Source of the DNA: a virus
Lineage: Duplodnaviria; Heunggongvirae; Uroviricota; Caudoviricetes
Virus record (IMG/VR): IMGVR_UViG_2529292909_000015
Direction: 5' to 3' (one strand)
DNA: 4,570 nucleotides
Part shown: positions 331 to 4,570 of the stretch, in pieces
Position numbering within the stretch: the first letter of the stretch is position 1
How the letters are laid out: every line of letters begins with the position of its first letter
Translations under genes and position numbers: made by a program
Notes under the pieces: generated by a model
Database searches by the model: none
Told to the model about the DNA's origin: nothing
Seen by the model: the letters and a program-made list of their open reading frames with translations, nothing else

Positions 331-921
331 ATGTCTCGAATTTTTGCTTACTGTCGGATATCAACGCTGGATCAGACCACCGAAAATCAACGCCGGGAAA
401 TCGAAAGTGCAGGTTTTAAAATCAAACCTCAGCAAATAATCGAAGAACACATTAGCGGCTCAGCAGCAACCAGTGAGCGTCCTGGTTTTAACCGGTTGCT
501 TGCTCGCCTGAAATGTGGTGATCAATTGATTGTGACAAAACTGGATCGCCTTGGTTGTAATGCAATGGATATCAGGAAAACAGTGGAACAACTGACCGAA
601 ACAGGTATCAGAGTGCATTGCTTAGCATTGGGGGGCATTGACCTGACCAGTCCAACAGGAAAAATGATGATGCACGTAATTTCAGCAGTCGCTGAATTTG
701 AACGAGACCTTTTACTTGAACGCACTCATTCCGGGATAGTAAGAGCCCGCGGCGCAGGGAAACGTTTTGGTCGACCACCTGTGTTAAATGAAGAACAGAA
801 ACAGGTGGTATTCGAACGAATTAAGTCAGGTGTAAGTATAAGTGCCATTGCCCGGGAATTCAAAACCTCGCGGCAAACCATTTTAAGAGCCAAAGCAAAA
901 CTTCAGACACCTGACATATAA
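331..921 (+). CDS. pinQ: Serine recombinase, DNA invertase of the Pin/Gin/Hin/Cin family (196 aa)
   Basis: ORF 331-921 translates to [15 protein letters not shown]...; N-terminal resolvase/invertase catalytic domain with the conserved Y-x-R-x-S-T-x-x-Q motif (presumed catalytic Ser11) and a C-terminal helix-turn-helix ([20 protein letters not shown]). Recognised as the PinQ/PinR-type invertase of E. coli lambdoid cryptic prophages; the Q symbol is chosen from the Qin-like neighbourhood (nohA/ynfO/ydfO-like genes downstream). Confidence 0.9.
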
Positions 922-1018: not shown

Positions 1019-1594
1019 CTACGGCAGTGCTGGCCATTCAATATCCGGTGCAGTTGATGTATCAACACGGTTCAGCAACACCCGATACTTTTTCCAGGCT
1101 TCCAGCAACAAGGTTTCTTCCTCCGTTGCGATCTCCAGATCCACAGCATCCTGAAGCGGCGCTATATGCTCACTGGCTATCTGCATCAGGCTGTTTTTTG
1201 TTTCTTCCGCCTCCCGGATCCGGAACAGTTTTTCTGCTTCCGTATCCTTCACCCAGGCTGTGCCGTTCCACTTCTGATATTCCCCTCCCGGCGATAACCA
1301 GGTAACATTTTCCGGTAACGGACCGAGTTCAGAAATAAATAACGCGTCCCCTGATGCCACGTCATAAACCGTTTTACCCCGATGATCTTCAACGAGATGC
1401 CACGATGCCTCATCACTGTTGAAAACAGCCACGAAGCCTGCCGGAATATCTGGCGGTGCAATATCGGTACTGTTTGCTGGCAGACCTGTATGAGGCGGAA
1501 TATATGCGTCACCTTCACCAATAAATTCATTAGTTCCGGCCAGCAGATTATAAATTTTTATGGTCCGTGGTTGTTCACTCATTCTGAATGCCAT
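1019..1594 (-). CDS. tfaQ: Tail fibre assembly protein (Tfa family chaperone, 191 aa)
   Basis: Minus-strand [27 protein letters not shown]...EWPALP recognised as the TfaQ/TfaR-type tail fibre assembly protein. ATG at 1594-1592 is preceded by a GAGG Shine-Dalgarno-like element and overlaps the stop of the upstream stf tip ORF (TAATG), indicating translational coupling. Stop codon TAG at 1021-1019. Confidence 0.88.
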
Positions 1595-2198
1595 TACGCA
1601 AGCCTCACAATATAGTTAAATGCGATGTTTTTGACGGTGTTTTCCGCGTTACCAGCAGCGTTAACGGTGATGGTATGTCCATGTGAACCAATCGCAACGG
1701 AGTGCGTATGAGCACCAATACCGACAGTATGTGCGTGTGCACCTGCGCTTGCAGCAGTACCCGATACAGAGTGCGTATGAGCGCCTGCAGAAGAAGTGTT
1801 AACACTGTATTTAGAATAATCAGGTGATCCACTTCCCGGAGCACCACTGGAACCACCTGAAACAAATGTCATCGAATGGGTATGTGCACCGGCTGTCCCC
1901 ATGCATTTACCGCCCGGACTGTCAGCCTGTAATTTCCCAGCGCCAGCTGCGTGAAGCGATATGTGGTTTCCGTCGTCCGGGCCGTGCTGACCAACCGCTC
2001 ACTGCCGTCGTCCGCTGCCACGGTCAGGCGAAGCATAAAGCTCACCCCCTTCACCACCTTCGGCGTGTCCCAGCGCGCCAGCACCTGGTATTCCCCGCTG
2101 TCTGCGGTGACTTCTGCGGTCAGGTGCTGAACTGCTGGCGGCGTGACACCATTCACCGTGCCGCTCTGGTCACCGTCAAAGTGCGCCCCGTTATCAGT
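1594..2198 (-). pseudogene. stfQ: Composite tail-fibre remnant: internal J-like (tail tip, fibronectin-III-like region) fragment (about 2198-1893) joined out of frame to the C-terminal receptor-binding tip of a side tail fibre protein Stf (about 1892-1594)
   Basis: Minus-strand frame open 2198-1872 encodes ...TVNGVTPPAVQHLTAEVTADSGEYQVLARWDTP...[27 protein letters not shown], which matches my recollection of an internal segment of lambda J, then runs into a stop after 7 unrelated codons. A different frame (open 1998-1597, ATG at 1902) encodes ...[10 protein letters not shown]...[10 protein letters not shown]...[50 protein letters not shown], the HxH-repeat C-terminal tip typical of lambda Stf / T4 gp37-type fibres. 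No N-terminal or shaft portion of Stf is present, and the two fragments are in different frames. Confidence 0.7.
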
Positions 2199-2698
2199 TC
2201 ATCCAGCGCGGCTGCTTTGTTCATGGCTTTGATGATATCCCGTTTCAGGAAATCAACATGTCGGTTTTCCAGTTCCGGAAAACGCCGCTGCACCGACAGG
2301 GGGATCCCGTCGAGAATACTGGCAATTTCACCTGCGATCCGCGACAGCACGAAAGTACAGAATGCGGTTTCCACCACTTCAGCGGAGTCTCTGGCATTTT
2401 TCAGCTCCTGTGCGTCGGCCTGCGCACGCGTAAGTCGATGGCGTTCGTACTCAATAGTCCCTGGCTGGAGATCTGTCTCGCTGGCCTGCCGCAGTTCTTC
2501 AACTTCCCGGCGCAGCTTTTCGTTCTCAATTTCAGCATCCCTTTCGGCATACCATTTTATGACGGCGGCAGAATCATAAAGCACCTCATTACCCTTGCCA
2601 CCGCCTCGCAGAACGGGCATTCCCTGTTCCTGCCAGTTCTGAATGGTACGGATACTCGCACCGAAAATGTCAGCCAGCTGCTTTTTGTTGACTTCCAT
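2153..2698 (-). CDS. nohA: Small terminase subunit Nu1 homologue (DNA-packaging protein NohA-like, 181 aa) with a non-native C-terminal tail
   Basis: Minus-strand ORF MEVNKKQLADIFGASIRTIQNWQEQGMPVLRGGGKGNEVLYDSAAVIKWYAERDAEIENEKLRREVEELRQ... is near-identical to lambda gpNu1 as I recall it, through ...KRDIIKAMNKAAALDELI; the last 10 residues (TGRTLTVTRAAR) diverge because the reading frame runs into J-like DNA. The N-terminal winged-HTH cosB-binding region is intact. Start ATG at 2698-2696, stop TGA at 2155-2153. Confidence 0.9.
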   Translation of the reverse strand: MEVNKKQLADIFGASIRTIQNWQEQGMPVLRGGGKGNEVLYDSAAVIKWYAERDAEIENEKLRREVEELRQASETDLQPGTIEYERHRLTRAQADAQELKNARDSAEVVETAFCTFVLSRIAGEIASILDGIPLSVQRRFPELENRHVDFLKRDIIKAMNKAAALDELITGRTLTVTRAAR

Positions 2699-2699
2699 T

Positions 2700-2915
2700 G
2701 TTCATTCCACGGACAAAAACAGAGAAAGGAAACGACAAAGGCCAAAAAGCCCGCTTTCAGCACCTGTCGTTTCCTTTCTTTTCAGGGGGTATTTTAAATA
2801 AAAACATTAAGTTACGACGAAGAAGAACGGAAACACCTTAAACCGGAAAATTTTCATAAATAGCGAAAACCCGCGAGGTCGCCGCCCCGTAACCTGTCGG
2901 ATCACCGGAAAGGAC
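2700..2915 (-). other. Lambda-type cos region: cosB (R1 about 2726-2741, R2 about 2763-2778, R3 about 2820-2838, A/T-rich IHF-type spacer between), cosN (2876-2887) and the cosQ-side right-end sequence (about 2888-2915)
   Basis: The reverse complement of 2698-2887 matches the lambda left end as I recall it (GGGCGGCGACCTCGCGGGTTTTCGCTATTTATGAAAATTTTCCGG...GAAAGGAAACGACAGGTGCTGAAAG...TGTCGTTTCCTTTCT...ATGGAAGTC) with only a few substitutions. The reverse complement of 2888-3086 matches the lambda right end (...GATGATAATCATTATCACTTTACGGGTCCTTTCCGGTGATCCGACAGGTTACG). The window therefore contains a closed (prophage-configuration) cos junction. Confidence 0.85.
2876..2887 (-). other. cosN cohesive-end sequence (5'-GGGCGGCGACCT-3' on the minus strand)
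   Basis: Plus strand 2876-2887 is AGGTCGCCGCCC, the exact reverse complement of the 12-nt lambda cohesive end, flanked by CGCGGG on the cosB side and CGTAACC on the cosQ side as in lambda. Confidence 0.85.
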
Positions 2916-3086
2916 CCGTAAAGTGATAATGATTATCATCTACATATCACAACGTGCGTGGAGGCCATCAAACCACGTCAAATAATCAATTATGACGCAG
3001 GTATCGTATTAATTGATCTGCATCAACTTAACGTAAAAACAACTTCAGACAATACAAATCAGCGACACTGAATACGGGGCAACCTC

Positions 3087-3320
3087 ATGTCAACGAAGAA
3101 CAGAACCCGCAGAACAACAACCCGCAACATCCGCTTTCCTAACCAAATGATTGAACAAATTAACATCGCTCTTGAGCAAAAAGGGTCCGGGAATTTCTCA
3201 GCCTGGGTCATTGAAGCCTGCCGCCGGAGACTGTGCTCAGAAAAAAGAGTTTCTTCTGAAGCAAACAAAGAAAAGAGTGACATTACTGAATTGCTCAGAA
3301 AACAGGTCAGACCAGATTGA
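3087..3320 (+). CDS. ynfO: Small basic protein, YnfO/YlcI-like (77 aa), predicted ribbon-helix-helix-like DNA-binding fold
   Basis: ORF MSTKNRTRRTTTRNIRFPNQMIEQINIALEQKGSGNFSAWVIEACRRRL...; Arg-rich N-terminal arm, then an alternating strand (RNIRFP), a helix ending in Gly (NQMIEQINIALEQKG) and a second helix (NFSAWVIEACRRRL), the pattern of Arc/MetJ/CopG RHH proteins. GGGG about 7 nt upstream of the ATG could serve as a Shine-Dalgarno. Position (first gene beyond cos, opposite strand to Nu1) and size fit the Qin ynfO / DLP12 ylcI class. The fold assignment is inference. Confidence 0.75.
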   Translation: MSTKNRTRRTTTRNIRFPNQMIEQINIALEQKGSGNFSAWVIEACRRRLCSEKRVSSEANKEKSDITELLRKQVRPD

Positions 3321-3362
3321 AGCAATTTAGATAATCGTGCAGACTACGCCCCCTCATATCAC

Positions 3363-3788
3363 ATGGAAGGTTTATCTATGGATCAGGTAGTCATTTTTAA
3401 ACAAATATTTGATAAAGTTCGAAACGATTTAAACTATCAATGGTTTTATTCTGAGCTAAAACGTCACAATGTCTCACATTACATTTACTATTTAGCCACA
3501 GAGAATGTTCATATTGTATTAAAAAATGATAATACAGTGTTATTAAAGGGCCTAAAAAACATTGTGTCTGTCAAATTTTCAAAGGATAGGCATCTTATAG
3601 AAACGACCTCTAATAAGCTGAAATCCAGAGAGATCACATTTCAGGAATACAGAAGAAACCTTGCTAAAGCAGGAGTTTTTCGGTGGGTTACAAATATCCA
3701 CGAACAAAAAAGATATTACTATACCTTTGATAATTCATTACTATTTACTGAAAGCATCCAGAAAACTACACAGATCTTACCACGCTAA
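3363..3788 (+). CDS. ydfO: YdfO/YbcV-like prophage accessory protein of unknown function (141 aa from ATG 3363; alternative start ATG 3378 gives 136 aa)
   Basis: [68 protein letters not shown]...QILPR; no predicted transmembrane segment and no catalytic motif I recognise. The internal ATG at 3378 has a much better Shine-Dalgarno (GGAAGG at 3365-3370, 7-nt spacer) than the first ATG. The gene is markedly AT-rich relative to the lambda-derived DNA to its left. I recall the YdfO/YbcV family as DUF1398, but that label is from memory. Confidence 0.8.
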
Positions 3789-3796
3789 ACCATAAC

Positions 3797-3825
3797 GTCC
3801 GGCTTCTCTCACTCCTGAGCCGGAC
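3797..3825 (+). other. Stem-loop immediately downstream of the ydfO-like stop (8-bp perfect stem GTCCGGCT/AGCCGGAC, 13-nt loop)
   Basis: Inverted repeat read directly: gtccggct (3797-3804) and agccggac (3818-3825). No U-tract follows, so it is not a canonical intrinsic terminator; it may be an RNA 3'-end stabiliser or a protein-binding site. Confidence 0.3.
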
Positions 3826-3894
3826 TGCATTGGTTTAATAAAAACCATCAACAATTGTGATTTAGATATTCGGAACCATTCAAATATAACAAAA

Positions 3895-3917
3895 CCCCGT
3901 AAAAACGAGGTTTATGG
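3895..3917 (-). terminator. Candidate intrinsic terminator for the minus-strand gnsB-like gene (weak, possibly bidirectional)
   Basis: Hairpin ccccgt-aaaa-acgagg (3895-3910; 5 of 6 stem positions pair) followed on the minus strand by a U-rich tract (TTTTGTTATATTTG) about 30 nt downstream of the gnsB-like stop codon; on the plus strand it is followed by TTTAT. Confidence 0.3.
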
Positions 3918-3939
3918 ATAAATTTTATTATTGAATACA

Positions 3940-4090
3940 TCAGATTAAATTAATCTTGACATCATAGCTTTCAAGACCCGTCATTTTTTCCCGTGCGGTA
4001 AACTGAATACTGGTAACTTCTTTCCCGGTCTTTTTCTTAAGTTCAATAATTTTTTTGTTATATATTCAGAAATATCTGCTTCTGCTTTTG
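3940..4090 (-). pseudogene. gnsB: gnsB-like gene remnant (GnsA/GnsB family): 5' end removed by the IS1 insertion and reading frame broken in a homopolymer run
   Basis: Minus-strand translation gives KAEADISEYITKK (frame ending at the A7 run, plus 4050-4056) and, one frame over, IIELKKKTGKEVTSIQFTAREKMTGLESYDVKINLI-stop (stop at 3942-3940). Joined, these align with the GnsA/GnsB sequence as I recall it (MNIEELKKQAETEIADFIAQKIAELNKNTGKEVSEIRFTAREKMTGLESYDVKIKIM). The first 8 or so codons and the promoter are replaced by the IS1 terminal inverted repeat, which begins at 4091. Confidence 0.6.
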
Positions 4091-4105
4091 GGTAATGACT
4101 CCAAC

Positions 4106-4570
4106 TTATTGATAGTGTTTTATGTTCAGATAATGCCCGATGACTTTGTCATGCAGCTCCACCGATTTTGAGAACGACAGCGACTTCCGTCCCAGCCGTG
4201 CCAGGTGCTGCCTCAGATTCAGGTTATGCCGCTCAATTCGCTGCGTATATCGCTTGCTGATTACGTGCAGCTTTCCCTTCAGGCGGGATTCATACAGCGG
4301 CCAGCCATCCGTCATCCATATCACCACGTCAAAGGGTGACAGCAGGCTCATAAGACGCCCCAGCGTCGCCATAGTGCGTTCACCGAATACGTGCGCAACA
4401 ACCGTCTTCCGGAGCCTGTCATACGCGTAAAACAGCCAGCGCTGGCGCGATTTAGCCCCGACGTATCCCCACTGTTCGTCCATTTCCGCGCAGACGATGA
4501 CGTCACTGCCCGGCTGTATGCGCGAGGTTACCGACTGCGGCCTGAGTTTTTTAAATGGCGGAAAATCGTG
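4106..4570 (-). CDS. insB: IS1 transposase InsB reading frame (insB', C-terminal 155 codons; 5' end outside window)
   Basis: Minus-strand frame reads [77 protein letters not shown]...[12 protein letters not shown]-stop, recognisable as IS1 InsB; stop TAA at 4108-4106. The ORF-track entry 4106-4483 is the Met-initiated portion of the same frame. Confidence 0.9.
4528..4570 (-). CDS. insA: IS1 InsA, C-terminal end (5' end outside window)
   Basis: Minus-strand frame reads ...[13 protein letters not shown]-stop with TAA at 4530-4528, matching the known InsA C-terminus that overlaps the start of the insB' frame. Confidence 0.8.
4546..4552 (-). other. IS1 programmed -1 ribosomal frameshift motif (A6C) at the insA/insB' overlap
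   Basis: Minus-strand sequence TTTAAAAAACTCAGG (plus strand GTTTTTT at 4546-4552) sits in the insA/insB' overlap, where IS1 is known to produce the InsAB' transposase by -1 frameshifting. Confidence 0.8.

Follow-up and report, generated by a model that had tools for sequence, protein, structure and literature searches.

Do two small co-oriented genes that lie directly beside a phage cohesive-end site (cos) work as a pair, or do they abut by chance? The question is raised by a 4,570-nucleotide stretch of viral DNA (Caudoviricetes; IMG/VR record IMGVR_UViG_2529292909_000015), referred to here as the window, in which an earlier note made from the letters alone had singled out positions 3087–3788 as an AT-rich, horizontally acquired cassette laid out like a toxin-antitoxin (TA) or regulator-effector pair. 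The window covers the end of a Qin-type cryptic lambdoid prophage, and its two genes are ynfO and ydfO, E. coli prophage genes already on record, whose function is unknown. As posed, the finding is a re-discovery of two annotated E. coli K-12 y-genes and was already known; the genes had rightly been sensed as accessory DNA, and they are not a two-gene system. The explanation that we favor, and consider probable, is that they are two independent accessory modules, with YnfO a probable ribbon-helix-helix (RHH)-type DNA-binding regulator under the control of Fur and FNR, and YdfO a stand-alone, non-toxic DUF1398 protein with a control region of its own.

Identity of the two genes

Window positions 2700–4090 are 100% identical to E. 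coli strain MDK6L1, in which the genes are annotated as ynfO and ydfO. The stretch is matched in 4844 of 5426 complete E. coli genomes (~89%), and the cassette is also present, at 98.5% identity, in the inducible phage PhiR42_1. The two co-oriented plus-strand open reading frames (ORFs) described earlier, 3087–3320 (77 aa) and 3363–3788 (141 aa), are present with a raw-ORF gap of 42 nt, and the expectation that their families would be known and their function not was borne out, ynfO belonging to DUF3950 and ydfO to DUF1398. YnfO matches Pfam PF13132 with E 2.7e-21 and 75.6 bits (cutoff 25) and NCBIfam NF041551 with 36.6 bits (cutoff 30), while YdfO matches PF07166 with E 1.7e-46 over profile positions 1–119 of 119. 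The features of the cassette are as follows.

3087–3320, plus strand: ynfO, 77 aa, YlcI/YnfO family (DUF3950); identified by Pfam, NCBIfam and annotation in the 100% identical E. coli genome
3087–3236, plus strand: conserved N-terminal domain of YnfO, codons 1–50, with a basic arm, an NIRFP strand candidate and two helices; putative RHH DNA-binding domain
3237–3317, plus strand: variable C-terminal tail of YnfO, Qin type, AT-rich (GC 0.357), at a mosaic junction
3378–3788, plus strand: ydfO, 136 aa, DUF1398; identified by Pfam, PDB 2HH8 and start-codon analysis; GC 0.316

The start of ydfO at the 3363 ATG (141 aa) was rejected: this codon is ATA in locus L137, a related phage locus, and out of frame in lambda. 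Because the ATG at 3378 is conserved and that at 3363 is not, ydfO is placed at 3378–3788, 57 nt from ynfO; AAGG lies 8–9 nt upstream of this ATG, and the 136-aa form is the one annotated in RefSeq. Both ORFs are genuine genes, kept by purifying selection, with a dN/dS of 0.11 for the first 50 codons of ynfO (against the copy of a Stx phage) and of 0.16–0.18 for ydfO.

The AT-richness that had suggested foreign DNA holds for ydfO (GC 0.316) and for the ynfO tail (0.357) but not for the ynfO N-domain, whose first 50 codons have a GC of 0.493, near that of neighboring phage genes (nohA 0.54); the GC of the whole window is 0.456. The description as a moron fits ydfO, which is accessory-like in its low GC, presence/absence, replacement, own upstream segment and trailing hairpin; the N-domain of ynfO does not have the distinct base composition of a moron. 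The contrast drawn with 'lambda-derived DNA' to the left was mistaken. Since both blocks of the cassette match the right end of lambda itself, at 98% identity over 2600–3249 and 84% over 3304–3807, the cassette is not foreign to lambda.

Mosaic structure of the locus

Comparison with related phages reveals that the two genes belong to different recombining blocks. The unnamed lambda orf and lambdap78, and ylcI and ybcV of DLP12, are orthologues of ynfO and ydfO in the same place (between the lysis genes or bor and cos) and in the same orientation; residues 1–54 of YnfO are 98% identical to the lambda copy, and YdfO is 79% identical to lambdap78. The homology to lambda is broken between the two blocks, and where the window has 55 bp, lambda has ~614 bp containing the opposite-strand gene ybcW/lambdap79. 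Lambda and DLP12 thus differ from the Qin type in carrying this insert between the genes and in having a short YnfO tail, TSEKRAYTSIKSDEE, whereas in the Qin type the genes are 57 nt apart and the tail has 28 residues. A 14-nt direct repeat, TGCTCAGAAAAAAG (3234–3247) and TGCTCAGAAAACAG (3292–3305), brackets the Qin-specific segment that replaces the lambda ybcW region, and may mark a recombination junction. In L137 the homology covers 2600–2920 and 3307–3805; ynfO is replaced by other DNA, and ydfO is kept together with ~70 nt of its own upstream DNA. Conversely, homology to Stx phage 2851 spans exactly 3087–3227, from the ynfO ATG to codon 47, with unrelated flanks. The genes have each been gained, lost or replaced independently among related phages.

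The sharp limits of the Stx-phage homology bear on the idea that the ynfO ORF is non-functional and that its conservation reflects a DNA-level role of cos-adjacent sequence. The conserved part does lie no more than 350 nt from cos, next to a variable tail. Nevertheless, this homology runs precisely from the ATG to codon 47 between entirely different flanks, the dN/dS of ynfO is 0.11 or lower, homologs at 38–44% identity keep the protein motifs in six other genera with no cos site nearby, and the DLP12 orthologue ylcI is transcribed (PMC12288877). We give this idea almost no credence.

Pairing was counted with family hidden Markov models (HMMs) over all loci that could be judged. Both genes are present in 76 of the 77 close DUF1398 loci and in every judgeable lambda-type locus, and together in none of 30 distant DUF1398 loci (24–47% identity) and none of 11 distant DUF3950 loci. 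The phage genome collection holds 155 records with a YnfO-like N-domain (DUF3950) and 43 with DUF1398, so that at least 112 phage records have DUF3950 without DUF1398; Stx-converting phages are among those that carry the former without the latter. A first viral scan with a mixed DUF1398 alignment had returned near-identical loci only. Judged from these alignments and counts, the pairing of ynfO with ydfO is specific to one lineage, and each gene recombines separately and is widespread without the other.

The distant DUF1398 genes occupy other accessory positions, either by cos and the terminase genes, with an N-terminal extension, or beside an integrase at the icd attachment site. One of them adjoins a Salmonella prophage gene that we take to be sopE. 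In loci L160, L161 and L165, a very distant DUF1398 gene (~4896–5477; 24–30% identity, with an N-terminal extension of 25–40 residues) sits between cos or the small terminase gene and the lysis genes. The lambdoid phages concerned differ in other respects, so that DUF1398 has kept its place beside cos well outside the lineage in which it pairs with ynfO.

The YnfO protein

Conservation in YnfO is confined to its N-terminal part. The first 50 residues are nearly invariant among 31 close homologs, while the homologs show at least six different tails, and the tail type tracks the recombination junction and not the DUF1398 variant. A search seeded with a Pasteurella member collected 42 diverse DUF3950 members at 38–44% identity, and in 38 DUF3950 sequences from eight genera residues I15, R16, F17, P18, F37, S38, W40, V41 and C45 are invariant (IRFP ... 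NFS-W-V-x-x-x-C).

The earlier guess that the 77-residue protein has an RHH fold stands as a plausible one, carried by weak signals that agree with each other, although no match is significant. The AlphaFold monomer has an extended basic arm and helices at 19–32 and 34–73, with block-mean pLDDT values of 69–85 only over residues 11–50; the strand is not formed, as expected if this is the monomer of an obligate dimer. Foldseek with this model returns only RHH-type folds (the ParD2 antitoxin at the top and a TCP domain), all with E ≥ 8 and hence non-significant. In hhalign, the NIRFP of DUF3950 falls in register with NLRWP of Arc (P = 0.004) and FNFRMP of Mnt (P = 0.038), both of these reference sequences being approximate. 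Sub-threshold Pfam matches of the 38 members include five RHH-type families, namely HicB_lk_antitox (5 members), NikA-like, RHH_5, Arc and CopG_antitoxin. From these alignments and the model, the fold of YnfO is likely to be ribbon-helix-helix. Like the Arc and Mnt repressors of phage P22, YnfO is a small phage protein with a basic N-terminal arm, an N-[IL]-R-[FW]-P strand motif and two helices; the likeness is read from sequence and model, and there is no significant sequence or structure match to either repressor.

YnfO may therefore be pictured as a small dimeric DNA-binding regulator whose conserved 50-residue N-terminus probably forms the RHH domain and whose tail would be whatever the adjoining DNA module happens to encode. 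Two evolution studies list 'mutations' in ylcI; these were set aside, as they come without functional information and probably reflect mis-mapping of paralogs.

The YdfO protein and the toxin-antitoxin reading

YdfO is identical at 140 of 141 positions to a solved structure, PDB 2HH8, deposited as 'hypothetical protein ydfO'. The Foldseek matches of its AlphaFold model were discarded, since they did not recover 2HH8, its own structure. A phmmer match to the parafibromin N-terminal domain (E 0.014) proved spurious and was gone with two family profiles. The statement that YdfO overexpression increases resistance to oxidative stress (PMC4077768) was likewise rejected as a mis-citation that arose from a mix-up of gene names, since the work of Wang 2010 (PMC3105296) reports on YfdO of prophage CPS-53 and never mentions ydfO. 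DUF1398 genes, including lambdap78 of lambda (NC_001416.1 47045–47452; PHROG 413), are labeled 'head protein' in RefSeq phage records and PHROGs, and an older label is 'putative envelope protein'; we found no support for either label, and this looks like a propagated annotation error.

The arrangement of a small RHH-like protein upstream of a slightly larger one would also fit a type II TA system, with YnfO as an RHH antitoxin whose variable tail neutralizes YdfO, a toxin of a new family. A variable C-terminal tail is indeed seen in RHH antitoxins, the best (non-significant) Foldseek match of YnfO is the ParD2 antitoxin, and the sub-threshold Pfam matches of DUF3950 members include HicB-like and CopG antitoxin families. 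However, YdfO matches DUF1398 and no toxin family, and none of the PADLOC defense models matches YnfO or YdfO at E up to 1. All 30 judgeable distant DUF1398 loci, and close relatives of the L137 type, have DUF1398 but lack DUF3950; DUF3950 in turn occurs without DUF1398 in the 112 or more phage records counted above, an opposite-strand gene splits the pair in lambda and DLP12, and the genes are 57 nt apart and do not overlap. The solved structure 2HH8 was obtained for YdfO alone and is taken to mean that the protein was over-produced by itself, and overexpression of the ASKA clone of ybcV, the ydfO paralog, gave viable cells with a glycogen phenotype (PMC2853380). Both defining features that were tested point the same way: the TA or regulator-effector pair proposed earlier is unsupported, because YdfO has neither the family nor the behavior of a toxin and the adjacency is not conserved beyond one lineage. 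We regard a TA system as very improbable. Thus, ynfO resembles ParD/ParE and CopG-type TA modules in gene order, in the variable C-terminal extension and in its top, non-significant structural match, and differs from them in that its ydfO partner is not conserved, is no known toxin, is tolerated alone and is separated from it by an opposite-strand gene in lambda. A tempting but wrong TA annotation is thereby removed from a cassette to which ~89% of complete E. coli genomes have a match.

YdfO would instead be a stand-alone, non-toxic, non-enzymatic cytoplasmic accessory protein. A parallel is offered by the lambda morons bor and lom, which, like ynfO and ydfO, are accessory genes of the late region that are transcribed against the late genes or independently of them, have a low GC, are present in some related phages and absent from others, and are controlled by host regulators; bor adjoins the DUF1398 gene in lambda and in L137. 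Bor and Lom are envelope proteins with described lysogen phenotypes. In YdfO, by contrast, there is neither a signal peptide nor any membrane feature, and it has no known phenotype.

cos, host-regulator sites and expression

The placement of the cassette just beyond cos was confirmed, the ynfO ATG lying 199 nt past the nick. The sites between cos and the end of the cassette are the following.

2876–2887, no strand assigned: cosN, 12-nt cohesive-end sequence AGGTCGCCGCCC (plus strand), within the region 2600–3249 that is 98% identical to lambda
2911–2917, no strand assigned: cosQ AGGACCC, complement of lambda GGGTCCT, located by pattern
2924–2938, no strand assigned: Fur box TGATAATGATTATCA, a perfect 7-1-7 palindrome, 156 nt upstream of the ynfO ATG
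3013–3026, no strand assigned: FNR box TTGATCTGCATCAA, centered 67 nt upstream of the ynfO ATG
3301–3317, no strand assigned: PdhR-box-like sequence AACAGGTCAGACCAGAT in the 3' end of ynfO, upstream of ydfO; exact match to a published site
3786–3837, plus strand: hairpin directly after the ydfO stop (inner stem 3797–3825), a possible terminator with no clean U-tract

The sequence at 2876–2887 is an exact match to the lambda cohesive end, and AGGACCC at 2911–2917 is presumably cosQ. Homology to L137, which lacks ynfO, ends at 2920, immediately past cosQ. The Fur box follows at once; its palindrome has one exact match, where 0.03 would be expected by chance.

Both host-regulator sites upstream of ynfO have been described before under the name of another gene. 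Chen et al. placed a 22.3-bit Fur site 233 bp upstream of nohA (-233) and showed a gel shift by Fur (PMC2189734), and this site corresponds to TGATAATGATTATCA at 2924–2938. Grainger et al. identified an FNR site by ChIP-chip and electrophoretic mobility shift assay (EMSA) and listed it as 'nohA/ydfO' (PMC1802558); it maps to window positions 3008–3031. The sole fusion assayed in that work was in the nohA direction, and its weak activity did not depend on FNR (PMC1802558). Both the Fur and the FNR site have also been reported for nohB of DLP12, and ynfO goes unmentioned in both papers (PMC2189734, PMC1802558).

We believe that ynfO was annotated only after these two papers appeared. Of the genes around the sites, ynfO is the more plausible regulated gene, because they lie 156 and 67 nt upstream of it and because the only promoter tested, that in the nohA direction, is weak. 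The experimentally verified Fur and FNR sites are thereby re-assigned from nohA to ynfO. In our proposal, ynfO would probably be expressed from a host-controlled promoter carrying these sites, and YnfO would probably repress its own promoter, the adjacent divergent module, or both.

The ydfO gene is associated with signals of its own. The PdhR-type box sits at the start of the ydfO mosaic block 3304–3807. A PdhR genomic SELEX (gSELEX) peak assigned to ynfO>ydfO<gnsB lists this box, and ybcV mRNA is 10-fold lower in a pdhR mutant (PMC7660256), while ydfO mRNA rises 116-fold after ionic-liquid shock (PMC4077768). The hairpin that follows ydfO has a minimum free energy (MFE) of -21.9 kcal/mol with z = -4.25, and 0 of 200 shuffles fold as well; a strict terminator scan did not call it. 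Folding of the intergenic stretch between ynfO and ydfO gave no significant RNA structure. With its own upstream control segment, marked by the PdhR-type box, and the trailing hairpin, ydfO may be expressed from the prophage under particular host conditions. Both genes are antisense to the phage late transcript and belong to the variable stretch that separates the lysis genes from cos.

Independent modules or a lineage-specific pair

On the explanation that we favor, ynfO and ydfO would be independently exchanged modules that abut by chance in this lineage. Several results weigh against it. All structural and profile signals for an RHH fold in YnfO fall below significance: profile searches of the PDB with two YnfO alignments returned no RHH protein, and Pfam searched with YnfO alone at E up to 10 gave DUF3950 only. 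In the literature searched, no operator or DNA binding by YnfO is reported. A consensus promoter scan of 2700–4100 yielded no sigma-70-like promoter, so that the promoters proposed for ynfO and ydfO are drawn solely from transcription-factor sites. DUF1398 is a small, phage-restricted family with a solved structure and unknown function, and the AlphaFold model of YdfO (24-sequence alignment) has a pLDDT of 45.8 and is unusable for fold comparison. Finally, both genes are nearly always present in the lambda/Qin lineage, and a functional link specific to this lineage is thus possible.

Such a link is the main rival to two independent modules. YnfO would then be a dedicated regulator of the DUF1398 gene in phages of the lambda/Qin type, each family occurring alone elsewhere. 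The near-constant co-occurrence counted above (76 of 77 close loci, every judgeable lambda-type locus) agrees with this, as do their common orientation with no significant structure in between and the constant association of the Qin-type tail with an adjacent DUF1398 gene. Yet phages of the L137 type replace ynfO and keep the DUF1398 gene with its own upstream segment, and the ydfO block brings along ~70 nt of its own upstream DNA with the PdhR-type box. In lambda and DLP12, moreover, an opposite-strand gene and a convergent transcript lie between the two genes, the transcripts of ybcW and ylcI being convergent and overlapping by RNA-seq (PMC12288877), and the tail type follows the junction rather than the DUF1398 variant. 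We therefore judge a dedicated regulator-target relationship unlikely. In the Qin arrangement, ynfO and ydfO may still share transcripts without being a dedicated system, because nothing blocks read-through.

DUF3950 in other phages and satellites

The neighbors of DUF3950 in other elements help to suggest what the family does. In lambda and Qin, DUF3950 is divergent from Nu1/A with cos in between, and in Stx phages it diverges from the HNH-TerS-TerL packaging genes at a distance of 42 nt. Phage-inducible-island-type elements with integrase, alpA and primase genes carry it as well, in Proteus, Yersinia, Salmonella, Xenorhabdus, Gilliamella and Pasteurella. In these satellites (L167, L169–L180), DUF3950 lies between alpA and the primase operon as the only gene on the opposite strand, with its start at 5001 in most, ~150–220 bp from and divergent to the operon of small genes and primase; in the Yersinia satellites it is followed by two small co-oriented genes. 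The satellite intergenic regions hold one to three copies of a 14-bp palindrome, [AG]GTG-N6-CAC[CG], at about -109, -86 and -39 from the DUF3950 start, which is 110-fold enriched relative to the rest of the satellite loci and is absent from the region upstream of ynfO in the window.

By its position, DUF3950 in the satellites is placed as a small regulator would be, and the arrangement looks like a repressor-operator switch; AlpA or another protein could instead bind the palindromes. We found no description of this arrangement in the literature searched. It is reminiscent of the Stl-type master repressors of staphylococcal phage-inducible islands, in that a lone small gene is transcribed away from the replication operon and the control region between them holds repeated palindromes. 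Satellite DUF3950 has no homology to Stl.

The recurrence of DUF3950 next to packaging genes raises the alternative that YnfO guards cos, either by binding near cosQ/cosN or by repressing spurious transcription into the divergent terminase genes; this would shield the lysogen from accidental cos cleavage and leave ydfO an unrelated passenger. Consistent with this, DUF3950 is directly upstream of and divergent from two unrelated types of packaging module (Nu1/A in lambda/Qin and HNH-TerS-TerL in Stx phages), and the upstream block of ynfO starts right after cosQ. In the satellites, however, DUF3950 adjoins the primase operon and not packaging genes or cos, and the only operator identified near cos is the Fur box, a known Fur-binding site. 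The minimal functional cos is commonly given as cosQ-cosN-cosB; ynfO would fall outside it, which counts against this alternative as well. We consider a role in guarding cos quite unlikely.

A wider proposal combines these placements. DUF3950 would be a family of RHH repressors transcribed against the main flow of the element and guarding the next module, that is, terminase and cos in lambdoid prophages and the primase operon of phage-inducible islands in Gram-negative bacteria. Within such islands its target would be [AG]GTG-N6-CAC[CG], and it would supply a repressor that they are not known to possess; in E. coli prophages it would be wired to Fur and FNR. Since lambda DNA enters the cell right end first, ynfO could moreover be among the first genes available for expression after injection. 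In its full extent the proposal is doubtful, but it offers for DUF3950 a role that can be tested, that of a small DNA-binding regulator in lambdoid phages and phage satellites, and, if true, bears on how Gram-negative satellites stay silent.

Two long ORFs run antisense to DUF3950 in satellites, one in the Pasteurella element L167 (2583–3257, minus strand), annotated 'transcriptional repressor', and one in L169, from one Proteus genome (4631–5467, minus strand). They share 32% identity and are without a Pfam domain, the ORF is broken in sister Proteus genomes, and both are probably artefacts of conserved DNA.

A scan of genome contigs with the YnfO alignment mostly returned lambda right-end sequence in Streptomyces, Cohnella, Flavobacterium, Pseudomonas and many others (L010–L044), often on contigs of ~3.5 kb or 48 kb. 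Lambda sequence in such unrelated assemblies is probably contamination by sequencing control DNA and does not mark true relatives; the contamination inflates protein-cluster lists with error-ridden variants.

Neighboring features of the window

From left to right, the window carries pinQ, tfaQ, tail-fiber and J remnants, a nohA-like gene, cos, ynfO, ydfO, a gnsB remnant and a partial IS1. The features outside the cassette and cos are as follows.

331–921, plus strand: pinQ
1019–1594, minus strand: tfaQ
Between tfaQ and the Nu1-type terminase gene: tail-fiber and J remnants
2153–2698, minus strand: Nu1-type small terminase gene (nohA-like)
3940–4090, minus strand: gnsB remnant, frameshifted, its 5' end cut off by IS1; identified by the GnsA/GnsB family annotation in matching genomes and by translation
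4091–4570, minus strand: IS1, partial, with InsB at 4106–4483 (Pfam DDE_Tnp_IS1, E 2.9e-74) and IS1 terminal sequence at 4091–4117

The gnsB gene is annotated as a member of the GnsA/GnsB 'addiction module toxin' family; it is context and lies outside the ynfO-ydfO pair. The exact IS1/gnsB junction is not collinear in any complete E. coli genome of the collection. On the minus strand at 1053–1251, inside the tfaQ coding region, the window has a full-length match to the candidate small RNA IS009 of Rfam (RF02111), which scores 221 bits where the gathering score is 117.

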